IMG/VR virus record: IMGVR_UViG_2703718821_000012
Coordinates: 1 to 39,225 of that record
Direction: 5' to 3' (one strand)
DNA from: a virus
Lineage: Duplodnaviria; Heunggongvirae; Uroviricota; Caudoviricetes
DNA length: 39,225 nucleotides
Part shown: piece by piece, positions 1 to 39,225 of the stretch
Layout of the letters: each line of letters opens with the position of its first letter
How positions within the stretch are numbered: position 1 is the stretch's first letter
The notes under the pieces: generated by a model
Database searches by the model: none
What the model was told of the DNA's origin: nothing
Seen by the model: the letters and a program-made list of their open reading frames with translations, nothing else
Position numbers and translations under genes: made by a program

Positions 1-201
1 TTACCCATTGGCGCGGCTTAAGAGCTTATTTTTGAATTCACAATGGTCACGATATAACCATCTTGCTCGCCCGTGGATAACTTTGGCTTTTGGCAGGTCG
101 CCGGACTTAATCCGGTCATAGATGAAGGTTTTACCGAATCCAGTATCGGCCATGATGAATTTCAAATCAACCAGTGAATCAGGCTGTAGTTCGTGTTGCA
201 T
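1..201 (-). CDS. xis: Excisionase / AlpA-family small DNA-binding protein
   Basis: 66 aa; HTH-like motif MADTGFGKTFIYDRIKSGDLPKAKVIHGRARWLYRDHCEF typical of AlpA-type excisionases; stop TAA at 3..1 directly upstream of int start across the window boundary. Confidence 0.75.
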   Translation of the reverse strand: MQHELQPDSLVDLKFIMADTGFGKTFIYDRIKSGDLPKAKVIHGRARWLYRDHCEFKNKLLSRANG

Positions 202-10189: not shown

Positions 10190-11562
10190 AACAGGATATC
10201 GAAGCGAGCGTTATCGGTGGCCTGCTGATTGGTGGATTAACTCCAACCGCCAGCGACGTTCTGGCAACACTGGAGCCGGAAGCGTTTTCAATTCCGCTCT
10301 ACCGGAAAGCCTTCGAGGTTATCCGCAAGCAGGCGCGAAACAGAAACCTAATCGACGCGCTGATGGTTGCTGAGGAATGCGGAGAGGAGCATTTCACGTC
10401 AATCCTGATGACCAGCAAAAACTGCCCGAGTGCCGCAAACCTGAAGGGATATGCCGGAATGGTCGCGGATAACTATCACCGCCGTCTGGTGCTGGAAATC
10501 ATGGACGAAATGCGTGAACCAATTCAGAGCGGAACCATCGACGCATCGAGTCAGGCGATGGATGAGCTTGTAAAGCGTCTCTCAGTCATCAGAAAGCCCC
10601 GTGACGAGGTTAAACCTGTACGGTTAGGGGAAATCATCACTGACTACACTGACACGCTTGACAGGCGTCTGAGGAACGGAGAAGAGTCCGATACCCTGAA
10701 GACCGGAATCGAAGAACTTGACGCTATCACCGGAGGGATGAACGCGGAAGACCTGATGATTATCGCCGCTCGTCCTGGTATGGGGAAAACCGAACTGGCG
10801 CTGAAGATTGCCGAAGGTGTTGCAAGCCGCGTTATTCCTGGTTCTGACGTCCGGCGCGGGGTATTGATTTTCTCAATGGAAATGAGCGCATTGCAGATTG
10901 CAGAGCGAAGCATTGCCAACGCCGGGAGGATGTCGGTTAGCGTACTGCGAAATCCTGCATCGATGGATGACGAAGGCTGGGCACGTGTTGCTAACGGCAT
11001 GAGTCAGCTTGCAGATTTGGATGTATGGGTAGTCGATGCCTCGCGGTTATCGGTCGAAGAAATACGCTCAATCGCAGAACGGCACAAACAGGAAAATCCA
11101 AACCTCTCACTCATCATGGCGGATTATCTTGGCCTGATTGAGAAGCCGAAAGCAGACCGCAACGACCTCGCAATTGCTCACATCTCCGGAAGCCTGAAGG
11201 CGATGGCGAAAGACCTGAAAACGCCTGTTATCTCCCTGAGTCAGCTTTCGCGCGATGTTGAGAAGCGACCAAACAAACGCCCGACAAACGCAGATTTGCG
11301 TGATTCAGGAAGCATTGAACAGGACGCAGACTCAATCATCATGCTCTATCGGGAAGCGGTATATGACGAGAACAGTAGCGCCGCGCCATTTGCTGAAATC
11401 ATTGTGACAAAAAACCGTTTTGGCTCACTTGGTACGGTTTACCAGCGGTTCTGCAACGGACACTTTGTTGCATGTGACCAGGATGAAGCCAGACAGATTT
11501 GCACAGCATCAAATGCACCTGCTGCACGTGGCAGACGATATGCACAAGGGGCTGACGTATGA
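10186..11562 (+). CDS. DnaB-type replicative helicase (P22 gp12-like)
   Basis: 458 aa; Walker [18 protein letters not shown]; DnaB-like N-terminal domain; ATG overlaps upstream stop (ATGA). Confidence 0.9.
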
Positions 11563-33841: not shown

Positions 33842-34327
33842 TTATCTGATGTTACTGCTACTGTTGCATGTGACTGTATTTCCAAACCCTGAATTGCAGT
33901 TTGTGTAAGTGTCAACTCGTGTTGGATAGGGTTGAGTTATAACAGGCTGTCTCGCTTTTTGCTCGATCGCTTGCATTGTGTTTACAGCCTGATAATTCAA
34001 TAAAGCCTGCTGGAATGCTTGGCTTTGTGCTATTTGTTGTGCTTGTTCTTGGCTTTGTAATTGAACATAAAGATTCTGAAGCTCAAGTCTTGCCTGTGCG
34101 TCACTTATCTTGCCTTCATCGACACCTTGCCCGAGCATCTTTGCAGCAAGGACATACAGTTTAGGTGTTGGTGCTGATGCCATGCGTGAGTCGTTCTTCA
34201 CACTGGCATCAAGGCAATTAGCCATATCGCTAAGCTTTTGATAGCGTTGTTCGCAACTTGCTTGATAGTCACTTACTTTTGCGCATCCAACCAGCAGAAG
34301 CGGGATAATTAACAGTGATTTTTTCAT
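33842..34327 (-). CDS. Predicted outer-membrane lipoprotein (161 aa), candidate exclusion / lysogenic conversion factor
   Basis: MKKSLLIIPLLLVGC lipoprotein signal with lipobox LVGC, Ala at +2; AAGGAG upstream; Gln-rich coiled region; opposite strand to late operon, downstream of mnt. Confidence 0.6.
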   Translation of the reverse strand: MKKSLLIIPLLLVGCAKVSDYQASCEQRYQKLSDMANCLDASVKNDSRMASAPTPKLYVLAAKMLGQGVDEGKISDAQARLELQNLYVQLQSQEQAQQIAQSQAFQQALLNYQAVNTMQAIEQKARQPVITQPYPTRVDTYTNCNSGFGNTVTCNSSSNIR

Positions 34328-34397
34328 ATGGTTAACTCTCCTTAGTTTTTCACAGGATAGCATGAAGGCAATGCCATTTTAGCCGGAAACTAGATTT

Positions 34398-34664
34398 CTA
34401 TGTTTCCTTTTTATTATTGCTATACATGGTCTTAAGCGTTTCAAAAACCATTTTCTTAACCATATCAGATTGTTGTTCTGCCATACGCTCTGCATCGTCA
34501 ATGTAAACGGATGCAGAGCTTTGTTTAGCCAACGATTCTTCAATCGCTGCAATTATCTCTGAGTTCAGCGATCTGTTATTCATCTTCGCACGCTGCTTAA
34601 TTTTCGCGTGGAGTTCATGCGGAAGTCTCAAGTGAAACTGCGCCTCATCGTATTTGCTGTACAT
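34398..34664 (-). CDS. mnt: Mnt-like ribbon-helix-helix repressor
   Basis: 88 aa MYSKYDEAQFHLRLPHELHAKIKQRAKMNNRSLNSEIIAAIEESL...DDAERMAEQQSDMVKKMVFETLKTMY aligns with P22 Mnt (NDAERLADEQSELVKKMVFDTLKDLY); RBS GGTGAGG. Confidence 0.75.
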   Translation of the reverse strand: MYSKYDEAQFHLRLPHELHAKIKQRAKMNNRSLNSEIIAAIEESLAKQSSASVYIDDAERMAEQQSDMVKKMVFETLKTMYSNNKKET

Positions 34665-34737
34665 CCTTGATGCCTCACCAGTTGGGTGGAATGGCATCGT
34701 AACCTACTGGATAAATACTCAATAGTACCATTTCGGT

Positions 34738-34760
34738 ATGCAACCACATCATGGTTGCAT
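34738..34760. promoter_or_regulatory. Inverted repeat ATGCAACC-N7-GGTTGCAT, candidate Mnt operator
   Basis: Perfect 8-bp arms between divergent mnt and tailspike genes. Confidence 0.45.
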
Positions 34761-34785
34761 CATATCATTCGTCTGGAGCAATGAA

Positions 34786-36606
34786 ATGTCAGATATCACC
34801 GCAAATGTTGTGGTAAGCATGCCTTCGCAACTCTTCACTATGGCGCGTTCTTTTAAAGCCGTGGCTAATGGCAAAATTTATATCGGAAAAATTGACACTG
34901 ACCCGGTAAATCCTGAAAACCAGATTCAGGTCTATGTTGAGAACGAAGACGGTTCTCACGTTCCTGTTGCACAGCCAATCATCATTAACGCTGGCGGGTA
35001 TCCTGTATATAACGGACAGATTGCCAAGTTCGTAACTGTGCAAGGCCATTCTATGGCTGTTTATGATGCGTACGGTGTGCAGCAGTTCTATTTTCCGAAT
35101 GTGCTGAAGTATGACCCTGACCAACTTAGGCAGGATCTTGCAGGACCAGATGGATATTATCTTATCCCATCTCTTATACAGAAATGGAAAGATGATGGTG
35201 ATTTACGTGGTTGGGGAATAGGAGAAGATGCATTTAACGCAGCTATGACTGAGATATCAGAAAGTGGCGGCGGCGTTCTTCATGTGAATGAAGACATCAT
35301 TTTTAGTACAATTCCTATCATGCATAAGCCTGGGGTTACTGTTTACTGGAATAATCATCGTGCAATTGTTCCTGCCGGTTTGAGTTCAACATATGCGTAT
35401 ATAATGGATGGTGGTGCCGACACGCCTGTATACGATAATACCGATCATTTCACGCTAGCTAACAAGACGAATTGTTATAATCTGCATCTTGAGGCATCTG
35501 ACTATGCTGTCGGTGTGAATGCTATTGGTGTATGCGTTAGACATTGCTACGGATATACGTATGAAGGAGGGGCAATTATTGGTTTCAATAATGGTGGTTA
35601 TTACGATGAATTATGCTATGAAGGTAAAGTTAGTAAATTTACTATGGTTGTGTCCAACTCTAGAGCGGAACAATCAATAGGATTAAACAGTAATACTACG
35701 GATACTTGGTATTCGGAAATTTCCCCTGTTGGTTACGCATATGGCGGTAAAATGAATAGGAGTGGTAATAGCTTAGATAAGTTTCATTCTTGGGGGAATA
35801 CTATCGATGATCGTGTTGGCTTAATGGGTAAAATGCATGTGGGATTGTGGGTTACTGAAAACGGAGGCTTTTCTACCTACACCAATCTAATTTTGGACAC
35901 TCCAGTAAGAAGAGATTCTAGTTCAGGTCCATCTAGAACTAATGGTGGTGTAGGTTTGATAAATGATGCGTGGGATACCAGTTTTGACGGTGTAATCGTC
36001 TCATGCTCTAAGAATGATATGGTGGCAAAAAGCACCCTACCAGTAATAACCTCATCACAAGGTGTAACCTATAAAGATCTTTCAGTTAGTAATCCTGAAT
36101 ACGCAACTGACATATGGGTATCATTTGAAAATAATTCTGGAATAGCTTTAAATCATATTATTGGATATGGATATGCACAATTGATGCGTAATGGCGCTGG
36201 CATAAGCTCAACATCAGGAGCTGCTTTCGCTCCTGCAAATGGAGTTACCATTTCATTACAGACACTATCTTCTGGAATTTGGTATAACACATTAAACTTT
36301 TCCATCAAGACAACAATAACAGCCACATCATCTGCATCAAGCGATGTAATTGTTAATATTGCTCCTATGTATGGAGTGAGAAATGGATTTGGAGGGGCAG
36401 TTAAGGGAGGGCTAGATGCTTTCTTTTATGCAACCGCAAATACAGCAAAACAACTATATGATGTTTATGTTGAAGTAACCTCTGCTAACACCGCCAAGTT
36501 TTTATTAACATTCATTGACGGAACAACAAGATACGCCAGATGGACAGATGTATCTAACGGATCTGCAAGGGCTATTTCTGTATCATGTAATATAGATGTT
36601 AAATAA
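34786..36606 (+). CDS. Tailspike protein: P22-type head-binding N-domain with divergent receptor-binding domain
   Basis: 606 aa; N-terminus [71 protein letters not shown] matches P22 gp9 head-binding domain; remainder unrelated to P22 gp9 and AT-rich. Confidence 0.85.
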
Positions 36607-36610
36607 CAAT

Positions 36611-36639
36611 CTACAGCCACTATGTAAAAGTGGCTGTAG
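36611..36639. terminator. Hairpin between convergent tailspike and acyltransferase genes (bidirectional terminator candidate)
   Basis: 11-bp stem CTACAGCCACT / AGTGGCTGTAG with 7-nt loop. Confidence 0.55.
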
Positions 36640-36648
36640 GGACTGTGA

Positions 36649-37755
36649 CTACTTGTTAAACCTGCACTCTATGTGTTTATAAGTAAATGCAGATGCTAAG
36701 ATCGTTATTGAAAGACAAATCACAGAGTATATTATTAACTGAGTTGTGTTTGTTTCAGACAGATTAACAAACTTAGAGGCTATTCTGTAAAATACATGCA
36801 GCACTGGTTGATGCAGTAAGTAAATGCTATAGCTAATTTCCCCTAAGAAAGCGATAGACGGAATGCTTAATAACCTTGGTTTTAGCACAACGCAAGACGC
36901 AAACATAAGTGATATCATGATAAATCGATAAAAGCTATATTGTTTTACATCGAAATAGAATGACATATAAAACAAAAACGCAAAAACTATATATATAACT
37001 GCTCTAAGTGATGTTTTTTCTATGTTTATTTCTTTGATTTTTGCGCAAAGAGCCCCAGCTACAAAGTACGACCACAACACTTTATCTTCATAGAAATCGT
37101 TGATCAATACAAAGCACCCAAAAGCAATTACCATGTACTTGAATTTTTTAGTATAGAGAGCAGTCGCTAAGAATGGGATAGATGCATAAAACTTCCACTC
37201 ATATGGGAGTGTCCACAATACTATATTTAAAGTAGCATCTCTATGTGCGCCCCAGTATAGCTCAGTTCCAAAAAAACCAAACCCAAATATTTTAAGTAAT
37301 TGAGTGACAAATAAAGGAAGGTCTAATTTCCCTAACATCTGTGAAAAATATATTACAGATATTAAAGTAGCGGTAAATAGATATAATGGAACTAATCTCT
37401 TTATTCTTTTTGCGTAAAATGATGTAAAGTCTATTTTATTATTTGAAAGTATTTTTGAAGAGAACAGAAATCCAGTTATGCAAAAAAATATCTGAACACC
37501 CAAGGCACCAGATTGGCTGAAAAGATAAAAGTTAGAGTAATCAATATTCTTAGTTTTTATCAACATATCACCAATGGCGTAAGCAGAGTGGTTGATGAAA
37601 ACGGCGATACATGCAAAACCCCTGAGTCCTTCAATGTACTGAATTTTGCCCTGATCTGTAGACTTTCTAATGAAAATAGATGTTGCCATTATTGGTACAG
37701 CAAGCATGACCAAATAGATGCAAAAGAAAGACAATTGGTAGTTATAAAGCGGCAT
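36649..37755 (-). CDS. oac: Integral membrane acyltransferase, family 3 (O-antigen acetyltransferase-like)
   Basis: 368 aa; about 10 hydrophobic segments; motif YIEGLRGFACIAVFINHS near N-terminus typical of acyltransferase-3; strongly AT-rich; next to tailspike and attP. Confidence 0.75.
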   Translation of the reverse strand: MPLYNYQLSFFCIYLVMLAVPIMATSIFIRKSTDQGKIQYIEGLRGFACIAVFINHSAYAIGDMLIKTKNIDYSNFYLFSQSGALGVQIFFCITGFLFSSKILSNNKIDFTSFYAKRIKRLVPLYLFTATLISVIYFSQMLGKLDLPLFVTQLLKIFGFGFFGTELYWGAHRDATLNIVLWTLPYEWKFYASIPFLATALYTKKFKYMVIAFGCFVLINDFYEDKVLWSYFVAGALCAKIKEINIEKTSLRAVIYIVFAFLFYMSFYFDVKQYSFYRFIMISLMFASCVVLKPRLLSIPSIAFLGEISYSIYLLHQPVLHVFYRIASKFVNLSETNTTQLIIYSVICLSITILASAFTYKHIECRFNK

Positions 37756-38067
37756 TGAAATTCACCATGAAAATGATTACCAAAATAATGATATATGCTT
37801 GTTTTTACTGATAAGTACACATAACACCATCCACCAATATGGCAAGGCCCAACTAATCTCATAGCCGGGCCCTGTTTGTCAGTTAACCGTGACGAAAACA
37901 GACTTGGATAGTGTAGCACTTGAGAAGCTTCTGATCAGCCAATGAAATCATGTTTTATGCATGTGGTTCTCAGATGTACATCATTGACATTTATGATTGT
38001 TTTTCATTAACTGTAACGTGGTACACACAATGCTTTGCATCGGTTTGCAATGCTTTGTTCTGCTTCC
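37756..38067. other. Probable attP region (core not pinpointed)
   Basis: 312-bp AT-rich non-coding region just 3' of int; direct repeats CAATGCTTTG at 38028..38037 and 38048..38057 as possible arm-type sites. Confidence 0.45.
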
Positions 38068-39225
38068 CTATGACACCTTCTCATCAAGCCAATCCGCCCA
38101 CCACTGCATCATTTCTCTGCGCTTATCGAGATACTGCGCATGGTTGTAAATACCGCGCACAGATCCGCCGTTGGCATGTGCCAGCTGCACTTCAATAGCG
38201 TCAGCAGGCCATTCGTGCTCGTTCATAATCGTGCTGAATTCATGCCTGAATCCGTGACCGCTTTCCAGACCCTCATAGCCGATTTGTTTGATCACAAGCA
38301 ATACCGCGTTCTCGCAGATTGGCTTCTTCTTATCGTTGCGCCCGGCAAAAACAAACTCTGAGACTGGTTTGGTGATTGAGCTTAGCGTAGTGAGAAGTTC
38401 AACCACCTGGTCCGACATCGGGACCACATGAATCTTGCGTCCCTTCATCACACTGGCGTCGATGGTGATAATCCTGTTTTCAAAATCGACGTTCTTCCAT
38501 TGCATGGAACGAAGCTCTTTCGTTCTTAGGGCTGTGTAGCGTAAGACTTTGGTCGCAATGAGCGATACGATACTTCCTGAAAATGTTGCCAGTGCTTTGT
38601 TGAATGCCGGGATCTGGTCTGCTGGAAGAAACGGGAAGTTCTTCTTGCGGTATCCTTTCATGGCGTCTGCAAGGTCAGGTGCCGGGTTATATTTAGCCCT
38701 TCCGGTGACAATAGCGTAACGAAAAACCTCGCCGCATCTTCTGCGGGCTTTATTGGCTCGTTCCATTGCACAGCGATCTTCAAATCTGCGGATTACTTCC
38801 AGCAGTTGCATCGGCTCAATATCCTGAATCTCAAGACCGCCGATGATGGGCAAAATGTCGTCATCAAACATTTTGGCAAGTTCAGTCGCATAGCCTACTG
38901 ACCAGACTTGCTTCTTGTGCTCGTACCATTCCTTGTATATTGCACTAAAGGAATTGTTGTTAGACGAAGCCTTTTTCACTTTTACTGGATCGATGCCAAC
39001 CGAGATGTCTTTCCTCGCAGTCCATGCCTTATCCCTTGCTTCCTGCAAAGTCATAAGCGGATATTTTCCGACAGTCAGGATTTTCTCCTTACCGTCAATC
39101 TTGTAGCGAAGCTGCCATACCTTTTTCCCTGATACAGGGACATAAAGGTACAGGCCATTACCATCGAGTAGGCGGTATGGTTTTTCTTTCGGCTTTGCTG
39201 CTTCAATCTGCTTAACGGTGAGCAT
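38068..39225 (-). CDS. int: Tyrosine integrase, P4-like family
   Basis: 385 aa starting MLTVKQIEAAKPKEKPYRLLDGNGLYLYV (typical P4-type N-terminus); catalytic-region motifs HGFRHEFST and C-terminal Tyr; ATG is the last 3 nt of the window. Confidence 0.9.
   Translation of the reverse strand: MLTVKQIEAAKPKEKPYRLLDGNGLYLYVPVSGKKVWQLRYKIDGKEKILTVGKYPLMTLQEARDKAWTARKDISVGIDPVKVKKASSNNNSFSAIYKEWYEHKKQVWSVGYATELAKMFDDDILPIIGGLEIQDIEPMQLLEVIRRFEDRCAMERANKARRRCGEVFRYAIVTGRAKYNPAPDLADAMKGYRKKNFPFLPADQIPAFNKALATFSGSIVSLIATKVLRYTALRTKELRSMQWKNVDFENRIITIDASVMKGRKIHVVPMSDQVVELLTTLSSITKPVSEFVFAGRNDKKKPICENAVLLVIKQIGYEGLESGHGFRHEFSTIMNEHEWPADAIEVQLAHANGGSVRGIYNHAQYLDKRREMMQWWADWLDEKVS

Follow-up and report, generated by a model that had tools for sequence, protein, structure and literature searches.

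A tailspike receptor-binding domain and a convergent acyltransferase gene as a putative mobile O-antigen conversion cassette of temperate phages

The locus and the question

Why does a P22-like prophage carry an AT-rich acyltransferase gene directly behind its tailspike gene and convergent to it, and do the two genes belong together functionally? The question arises at the right-hand end of the window, by which is meant the whole 39,225-nucleotide (nt) stretch analysed here, positions 1 to 39,225 of IMG/VR virus record IMGVR_UViG_2703718821_000012. The initial annotation, made from the sequence alone, read the two genes as a horizontally acquired, matched pair of O-antigen recognition and modification functions of unknown specificity. 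Comparison with related loci argues that the receptor-binding domain of the tailspike and the acyltransferase, a presumed receptor-masking enzyme, move together, as a single cassette, between phage morphotypes and between bacterial genera. This comparative evidence is new, as are the very different evolutionary ages that the sequences suggest for the two halves of the cassette, the placement of the acyltransferase in a lineage that appears to have no characterised close relative, and a probable assignment of the receptor to the O91 antigen of Escherichia coli.

A stretch shared by four phage backbones

Outside P22-like phages, homology to the window (compared loci are given L numbers) runs from 35185 to 37945 or 37954 in L014, L021 and L022 and from 35176 to 37945 in L030 and L031. 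In these contexts it begins just after the head-binding junction of the tailspike and ends about 190 nt upstream of the acyltransferase ATG. Acyltransferase loci were collected from exact-protein look-ups, IMG/VR, JGI/ENA metagenomes and complete genomes, and in about 20 of the roughly 20 inspected the gene faces a convergent tailspike of the same receptor-domain family, 42-46 nt away (42 in the window). The cassette occurs in four phage backbones and three genera (Escherichia, Hafnia and Citrobacter), and three of the backbones lack intS. The first context consists of P22-like prophages at the tRNA gene argW, with immI regions that vary. In the second, siphovirus-like phages encode a DUF1833 protein, an NlpC/P60 protein and 821-amino-acid (aa) tip proteins, together with a tailspike of the Tail_spike_N type and a different integrase of 439 aa. 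Prophages of Hafnia paralvei and Citrobacter portucalensis form the third, in which a 712-aa tailspike is followed by the acyltransferase and then by a lysis cassette, and the fourth is a contig with the pair near an antirepressor gene and tgt-yajC. Among the GTDB species-representative genomes, receptor-domain alignment and acyltransferase scans found no copy of the cassette, and only a 22% identical relative in Flammeovirga.

The base composition also sets the module apart. The phage backbone (1-33751) has a guanine-plus-cytosine (GC) content of 48.1%, with a standard deviation (sd) of 3.2% for gene-sized windows, and the integrase gene has the same value. The head-binding part of the tailspike gene stands at 44.9%, the receptor domain at 39.1% (26.8% at third codon positions) and the acyltransferase gene at 33.2%, so that the receptor domain lies about 3 sd and the acyltransferase about 4.6 sd below the backbone. 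The sharp drop that had been described within the tailspike is therefore real in size, from 44.9% to 39.1%, but it is gradual rather than abrupt. Horizontal acquisition is borne out both by this deviation and by the recurrence of one stretch, about 35176-37950, that has the same ends in all four backbones and three genera.

The two halves of the cassette differ greatly in divergence. Two clades of receptor domain can be told apart: clade A contains the window, L020 (99% identical) and L021 and L022 (90%), and clade B contains three copies from complete genomes together with L006 and L023, with mutual identities of 88-97%. Identity between the clades is 72-76%, and synonymous divergence (dS) is saturated. 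When the clade-B prophages L001, L006 and L023 are compared with the window, the receptor domain is 66-75% identical in nucleotides over 35500-36500 and 73.5-75.6% in amino acids over the whole domain, with dS of 1.0-1.2 and a ratio of nonsynonymous to synonymous divergence (dN/dS) of 0.15-0.19, whereas their acyltransferases are 99.5-100% identical in amino acids, with dS of 0-0.02. Likewise, Hafnia paralvei GCA_046082725.1 (L030) has a receptor domain 78% identical to that of the window and an acyltransferase 98.9% identical, and for Citrobacter portucalensis GCA_019584605.1 (L031) the values are 72% and 99.5%. An acyltransferase conserved to 98.9-99.5% in these two genera argues for very recent inter-genus transfer. 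The unequal divergence in turn suggests that the receptor-domain alleles are old lineages and that the acyltransferase allele has spread recently. Receptor-domain alleles appear to be shuffled by recombination between two arms, one at the start of the domain and the other formed by the acyltransferase and its leader. The pattern is compatible with a single masking enzyme that serves several receptor-domain variants for the same or a very similar polysaccharide. The features of the module and of the prophage ends are collected in Table 1.

Table 1. Coordinates of the module and of the terminal prophage genes in the window
Feature	Position	Strand	Basis or remark
Mobile cassette (proposed): receptor domain, hairpin, acyltransferase, leader	35176..37950		Shared by siphovirus-like phages and by Hafnia and Citrobacter prophages
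Tailspike N-terminal head-binding (particle-attachment) domain, aa 1-115, P22 gp9 / Sf6 gp14 type	34786..35130	+	Pfam PF09008; structures 7sg7, 2xc1, 1lkt
Tailspike receptor-binding domain, aa 116-606, predicted right-handed beta-helix plus C-terminal beta domain, clade A	35131..36606	+	
Hairpin, perfect 11-bp stem and 7-nt loop, between the two convergent stop codons	36611..36639		Fold energy against shuffles
AT3-family acyltransferase, presumed integral-membrane, 368 aa, without SGNH domain (Oac/OacB-like)	36649..37755	-	PF01757
Leader/promoter region, right-hand end of the proposed mobile cassette	37756..37950	-	Homology stops at 37945-37954
IntS-type tyrosine integrase, argW-specific family	38068..39225	-	Pfam Arm-DNA-bind_3, Phage_int_M, Phage_integrase; terminal prophage gene
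TorI-like excisionase, opposite prophage end	1..201	-	PHROG 66 excisionase at 2.7e-8; size and position as Sf6 gp18 TorI

The tailspike

The tailspike open reading frame (ORF; 34786-36606, plus strand) encodes 606 aa and has GGAG 8 nt 5' of its ATG. Its first 110 or so residues had been matched to the P22 gp9 head-binding domain, and this holds: Pfam PF09008 (Head_binding) covers aa 1-113 at full length (E 4e-67, 224 bits against a cutoff of 24), residues 1-119 align with Sf6 gp14 (7sg7), and residues 2-115 align with full-length P22 gp9 (2xc1). At the nucleotide level this domain is 92-97% identical to those of other P22-like prophages at argW.

The remainder of the protein had been called unrelated to P22 gp9. 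This stands for the sequence, since a PDB sequence search gives no match to P22 gp9 or to any other solved structure past residue ~119, but not for the fold, which is predicted to be of the same class. An AlphaFold2 model of residues 116-606 (monomer, 30 homologs) places a right-handed parallel beta-helix, of the receptor-binding or depolymerase type, after the YDPDQ junction. The mean predicted local distance difference test score (pLDDT) of the model is 74, with blocks at 85-95 over residues ~20-220 and weaker values in the C-terminal third. Foldseek matches in the PDB are almost exclusively phage tailspikes (Det7 gp208, HK620, CBA120 TSP2/3/4, 9NA, Sf6 and P22), with probabilities of about 1.0 and low TM scores. 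The domain has invariant acidic residues; the monomer model did not single out catalytic ones. The domain is thus modelled as a glycan-binding beta-helix that is probably also glycan-cleaving; homology and fold searches of the C-terminal part lead to a polysaccharide-depolymerase beta-helix and not to a non-glycan-binding fold. An SGNH esterase in this position, which would have made an acetylase/deacetylase pair with the neighbouring gene, was rejected on the predicted beta-helix.

The receptor domain is modular, standing behind P22-type head-binding domains, Tail_spike_N (PF18668) domains and T7 gp17-type N-termini. Tail proteins of the Kayfunavirus phages pO91 and PH1061, of the Ackermannviridae phages LPST94 and ECO340P1, and of Hafnia phage Meifeng share 65-72% identity with it.

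An in-frame ATG upstream of the tailspike gene, at 34738, was considered as its start and rejected, the ribosome-binding site and the alignment with P22 and Sf6 favouring 34786. A hairpin with a 9-bp stem and a 5-nt loop (ATGCAACCA CATCA TGGTTGCAT) lies at 34738-34760, just 5' of the ribosome-binding site, and overlaps this upstream ATG, which is probably unused.

The acyltransferase, its leader and the shared hairpin

That the neighbour is an AT-rich family-3 acyltransferase convergent to the tailspike is confirmed by Pfam Acyl_transf_3 (PF01757; E 2.5e-34, 119 bits against a cutoff of 31, profile positions 2-324 of 326), along with the GC content and the gap given above, and PHROG 3333, 'O-acetyltransferase', matches at 4e-44. 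Its best phage relatives, all annotated as O-antigen acetylases, are 25-30% identical: OacB of Sf101 (the best, 30%), GtrC of BTP1, and that of g341c. The protein is isolated in a large protein database, in which one 98% cluster is followed by relatives at 51% and then at 42% or less. No equivalog-level model of NCBIfam matches it, the sole match there being far below its cutoff, and a PDB sequence search with the protein gave nothing meaningful.

Alignment with Sf6 Oac, Sf101 OacB and seven further homologs leaves R45, H56, R117, R120 and the stretch W181-T-L-x-x-E186 invariant. H56 corresponds to the catalytic histidine of the first conserved transmembrane (TM) helix of the family, and R117 and R120 form the RxxR motif that aligns with R73/R76 of Sf6 Oac. 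Across the copies dN/dS is 0.05-0.17, indicating purifying selection. Based on the invariant catalytic motifs and this selection, the sequence comparison argues that the protein is very probably an active enzyme. A Kyte-Doolittle scan at a strict threshold finds six strongly hydrophobic regions; the AT3 family has about ten TM helices.

Upstream of the gene lies a leader of about 190 nt that hardly varies from one cassette context to another. Within its first ~115 nt are the 30-mer GCTGATCAGAAGCTTCTCAAGTGCTACACT, which has one GATC site, and a GGGCCC...GGGCC hairpin. The 30-mer is present in 16 of the 33 loci, including one upstream of an unrelated acyltransferase gene. Parts of the leader are found before other genes as well. 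The first ~115 nt precede an unrelated 655-aa acyltransferase in strain YZ3-11 (L026, 7001-7223), the first ~35 nt precede gtrA in strain 30COLEC (L003, ~10303-10470), and the element also occurs in L032 (8574-8603). The leader may serve different conversion genes as a common promoter or regulatory sequence. A covariation test on it yielded 0 compensatory pairs, the sequences being too similar.

The initial annotation had also pointed to a hairpin shared by the two genes at 36611-36639, and the structure is firmly there. Folded together with its flanking sequence it has an energy of -21.4 kcal/mol (z = -5.6), which 0 of 200 shuffles reached. A T-rich tail is present on the minus strand only, so that the hairpin would be a canonical terminator for the acyltransferase only; in Sf6, a putative oac terminator is annotated at the equivalent position. 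The hairpin is kept in all copies of the cassette and also stands 3' of the tailspike gene in E. coli strain MB06231, which lacks exactly 36639-38073 and with it the acyltransferase. The loop reads ATGTAAA in the window, L006, L009, L014 and L020, TTTACAT in L021 and L022, and TTTATAT in L001 and L023. Because the loop occurs in both orientations while the stem is unchanged, the hairpin has flipped, and the probable cause is recombination or template switching between the arms of the inverted repeat.

A proposed recognise-and-mask mechanism

The two genes form, in all likelihood, a conversion module made up of an O-antigen tailspike and an O-antigen acetylase. A matched pair of this kind is supported by the linkage at all of the ~20 loci, by the depolymerase-type beta-helix fold, and by the AT3 motifs together with purifying selection, although the pairing is not obligatory for the tailspike.

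By analogy with Sf6 and its Oac and with BTP1 and its GtrC, the probable mechanism as a whole is lysogenic conversion of the Sf6 type by a P22-like prophage at argW. The tailspike would attach to the virion through its conserved head-binding domain. During infection the exchangeable beta-helix domain would bind, and probably cleave, the O-antigen of the host, most likely that of E. coli O91 or a polysaccharide closely resembling it. In the lysogen, expression of the acyltransferase would be driven by its own leader, with a possible contribution of read-through from argW and int, whose direction is the same; the enzyme would then insert in the inner membrane and O-acetylate the same O-antigen. 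Acetylation would alter the epitope and thereby the serology, and would lower adsorption of phages that use the unmodified receptor. The hairpin would both end the acyltransferase transcript and cap the late tailspike transcript. Finally, the cassette would move between temperate phages by exchange at two points, namely the junction between head-binding and receptor domains and the end of the leader. Glycanase activity, O-antigen acetylation, an exclusion phenotype and O91 specificity of clade A are the parts of this scheme that we infer. In the BTP1 lysogen, the acetyltransferase gene beside the tailspike gene (gtrC) is reported to be transcribed at a high level and its product to inhibit superinfection.

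Which O-antigen?

The best lead to the receptor comes from the lytic phage pO91. According to accounts in two reviews, its receptor-binding protein 'pO91-ORF43' binds only E. coli O91. The homologous tail protein, which is very likely the protein named in those accounts, is 69% identical in amino acids to the tailspike of the window and 82-84% identical to clade B.

The distribution of the receptor-domain family among complete E. coli genomes points the same way. It was found in 3 of 5426 genomes (strains GPEC1292, MB06231 and 30COLEC), each time as clade B. GPEC1292 and MB06231 carry intact P22-like prophages at argW, and both strains have wzx and wzy of the 'O91 family'. Their O-antigen clusters include rfbBA, a 3,4-ketoisomerase gene, a GNAT gene and an aminotransferase gene, a set that presumably fits the Qui3N-acyl sugar of the O91 structure. 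Since O91 accounts for 27 of the 5426 genomes, two O91 strains among three carriers corresponds to a hypergeometric p of ~7e-5. The unknown specificity of the initial annotation can thus be narrowed. O91 or something close to it is well supported as the target of the sister clade B, and for the clade A of the window O91 is the reading that we favour by a modest degree.

A number of observations weigh against parts of this picture. No consensus sigma-70 promoter was found upstream of the acyltransferase on the minus strand. In pO91, the homologous protein in the gp17 position is the 42nd coding sequence of the GenBank record and the 43rd is the holin, so the ORF number is off by one. The third clade-B carrier, 30COLEC, is O21; its wzx is frameshifted and its tailspike gene lies in a prophage remnant. 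The published O91 structure has, to our knowledge, no O-acetyl group, so that an acetylated O91 variant would be undocumented. The acyltransferase stands beside receptor domains down to 72% identical, which a tight one-to-one functional match would not require. With only 69% identity to the pO91 protein and 72-76% to clade B, clade A lies at distances at which tailspike specificity can differ. It occurs in 0 of the 5426 complete E. coli genomes.

The strongest alternative starts from these last points. It retains the conversion module but has clade A target something other than O91, either a related O-antigen shared with Hafnia and Citrobacter or acetylated O91. The saturated synonymous divergence between the clades, the position of the most divergent stretch (35500-36500), which spans most of the beta-helix, and the presence of clade-A-like and intermediate alleles in Hafnia paralvei and Citrobacter portucalensis are all in keeping with it. 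However, an acyltransferase that is 100% identical is linked to both clades, and one would expect such an enzyme, as an O-antigen acetyltransferase, to depend on a specific acceptor context; moreover, the receptor-domain family as a whole clusters with the O91-binding protein. This alternative is possible, with perhaps one chance in a few of being right. Distinctly less probable is a further reading in which the cassette is self-contained, one recently spread acyltransferase allele is flanked by anciently diverged receptor domains, and the clades are arms-race variants that differ in their use of the acetylated receptor, clade A being an escape allele that tolerates or needs its own acetyl group.

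The chromosomal flank of the assemblies with an exact match to the window (L009, 1-6500) matches hundreds of strains of many serotypes at 99.9% and is uninformative about the host lineage. A literature search for O91 together with acyltransferase and prophage found no paper. Another O91 strain, YZ3-11 (L026, NZ_CP127004.1, 4494610-4500004), has two acyltransferase-family genes, of 629 and 655 aa, after intS at argW; the proteins have the size of AT3-SGNH proteins, and the genes are in a different prophage that bears tail fibres. At least two distinct modules that are candidates for O-antigen acylation thus occupy this slot in O91 strains.

Possible alternatives: chance linkage of the two genes, or another substrate

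The unequal divergence of the two genes is also the chief argument for a looser explanation, in which the acyltransferase is an independent moron in the cargo slot between tailspike and int, transferred together with the receptor domain only because they are adjacent and flanked by junctions prone to recombination. An acyltransferase that is 98-100% identical beside receptor domains that are 72-78% identical, with dS of at most 0.02 against about 1, does imply different histories. The content of the slot varies as well, since it holds nothing in MB06231, gtrABC behind the clade-B tailspike of 30COLEC, two unrelated large acyltransferases in YZ3-11, and a PF00884 gene in L032. The pairing is in this sense one-way, in that related tailspikes are elsewhere accompanied by gtrABC, by a PF00884-family gene or by no conversion gene at all. 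Against this explanation, the spacing and the outer boundaries are constant in four backbones, three of which have no intS, and none of the ~20 loci has the acyltransferase without this receptor-domain family or beside another tailspike family. Hitch-hiking alone would not keep the pairing across genera, and we regard mere co-transfer as unlikely.

Two of these variant slots deserve a description. The siphovirus-like locus L032 (7015-8472; also L033) has a receptor domain 73% identical to that of the window, followed by a 485-aa PF00884 gene and not by the acyltransferase gene; this gene, of the sulfatase / phosphoethanolamine-transferase superfamily, may provide a different modification of the O-antigen or of lipopolysaccharide at the same position. 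In 30COLEC (L003, also L019), the clade-B tailspike gene, gtrABC and intS persist as a remnant beside a P4-like element.

That the acyltransferase acts instead on another glycan (enterobacterial common antigen, colanic acid or capsule) or on peptidoglycan, unrelated to the tailspike receptor, is very improbable: AT3 is a broad family with many acceptor types, the protein has no equivalog-level NCBIfam match and the closest characterised O-antigen acetylases are only 25-30% identical, but the gene has the position and orientation of oac in Sf6 and oacB in Sf101, its named phage relatives are all O-antigen acetylases, and it is strictly linked to a tailspike domain of the O-antigen type.

Relationship to known systems

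The conversion module with which the two genes are best explained is of a well-known kind, represented by Sf6, Sf101, P22, epsilon15-like phages and CUS-3, and the principle of recognising and then masking a receptor has been textbook knowledge since Sf6, P22 and epsilon15. The closest parallel is the Shigella phage Sf6, which has the same order and orientation: gene 14 for the tailspike (plus strand), a terminator, the AT3 gene oac (gene 15, minus strand), the oac promoter, IntS (minus strand), attP and TorI. The head-binding domains are nearly identical over aa 1-119, and both acetyltransferases consist of the AT3 part only, with the same histidine and RxxR motifs. The differences lie in the parts that meet the polysaccharide. 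Beyond aa 119 the receptor domain has no detectable sequence similarity to gp14, an endorhamnosidase; Oac is about 20% identical overall (29% over a local match of 172 aa); and the substrate of Sf6 is the rhamnose backbone of S. flexneri, whereas that of the window is presumed to be an O91-type antigen.

Other P22-like phages, namely Sf101 of Shigella (OacB) and BTP1, g341c and SPN1S of Salmonella (GtrC/Oac-type), likewise have a convergent AT3 acetylase gene directly after the tailspike gene, but their acetylases are 25-30% identical to that of the window and their substrates differ; Sf101 in addition has another integrase, in the opposite orientation. Phage pO91 (Kayfunavirus) shares the receptor-domain family, but it is T7-like and lytic, its tail protein has a gp17-type N-terminus, and it lacks an acyltransferase. 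The glucosylation genes gtrABC of P22 and yfdGHI of the K-12 prophage CPS-53 occupy the same cargo slot between tailspike and integrase; they act through three proteins and have no sequence relation to the acyltransferase. The head-binding domain of CUS-3 is 87.6% identical in nucleotides to that of the window. CUS-3 is a P22-like prophage of E. coli K1 at argW that combines an endosialidase tailspike with the polysialic-acid O-acetyltransferase NeoO, encoded near int. NeoO is a soluble hexapeptide-repeat acetyltransferase that acts on the capsule, not an AT3 membrane enzyme acting on O-antigen.

If the proposed function is correct, the module would be a natural example of a receptor-recognition domain and a receptor-masking enzyme inherited as one unit, across podovirus-like and siphovirus-like backbones and three genera. 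O91 is among the commoner non-O157 serogroups of Shiga-toxin-producing E. coli. A prophage that acetylates O91 would create an undescribed O91 sub-factor, and acetylation could affect serotyping, diagnostics based on O91-directed phages or receptor-binding proteins (such as the pO91 protein), and host range in phage therapy.

Attachment site and surrounding genes

The window runs from the stop codon of the TorI-like excisionase gene to the ATG of the integrase gene. The integrase is 98-100% identical to IntS proteins of E. coli whose genes adjoin the tRNA-Arg gene argW. The genes follow one another as tailspike, acyltransferase, intS, tRNA-Arg (argW) and yfdC in E. coli genomes that carry this module. 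According to the paper on Kapi1, attP sits between int and xis in Sf6, HK620, KplE1 and Kapi1. The module had been placed at attP, and this proved only loosely right: the integrase gene lies between the acyltransferase gene and the att site, so that the former is one gene distant from attP. Because the window spans from the excisionase stop codon to the int ATG, both att halves lie outside it.

The first 25 kb of the window are 95-97% identical to Escherichia P22-like phages such as Bas106, IME10 and HZ41, the match covering 45-53% of its length. An Rfam scan of 34300-39225 gave nothing above threshold; the sole match, an isrK-like segment at 38663-38753 (plus strand) inside int, was taken as chance (20.9 bits against a gathering score of 50, E 0.24). 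The exact module sequence of the window is present in assemblies GCA_001607755.1, GCA_900604095.1 and GCA_965256665.1 and in the runs ERR3549228 and ERR14842274.

Between the gene for a gp16-like ejection protein and the integrase gene lie a small lipoprotein gene, the gene for a Mnt-like repressor, the tailspike and acyltransferase genes, and a 312-bp spacer. The immI region of the window consists of the Mnt-like gene only, without arc or ant, unlike those of L009 and MB06231. The lipoprotein-like ORF (33842-34363, minus strand), situated between the gp16-like ejection gene and mnt, has an LLLVGC lipobox and a 161-aa core (PHROG 6067, function unknown). It occupies what we take to be the position of sieA in P22, and is a candidate superinfection-exclusion gene.

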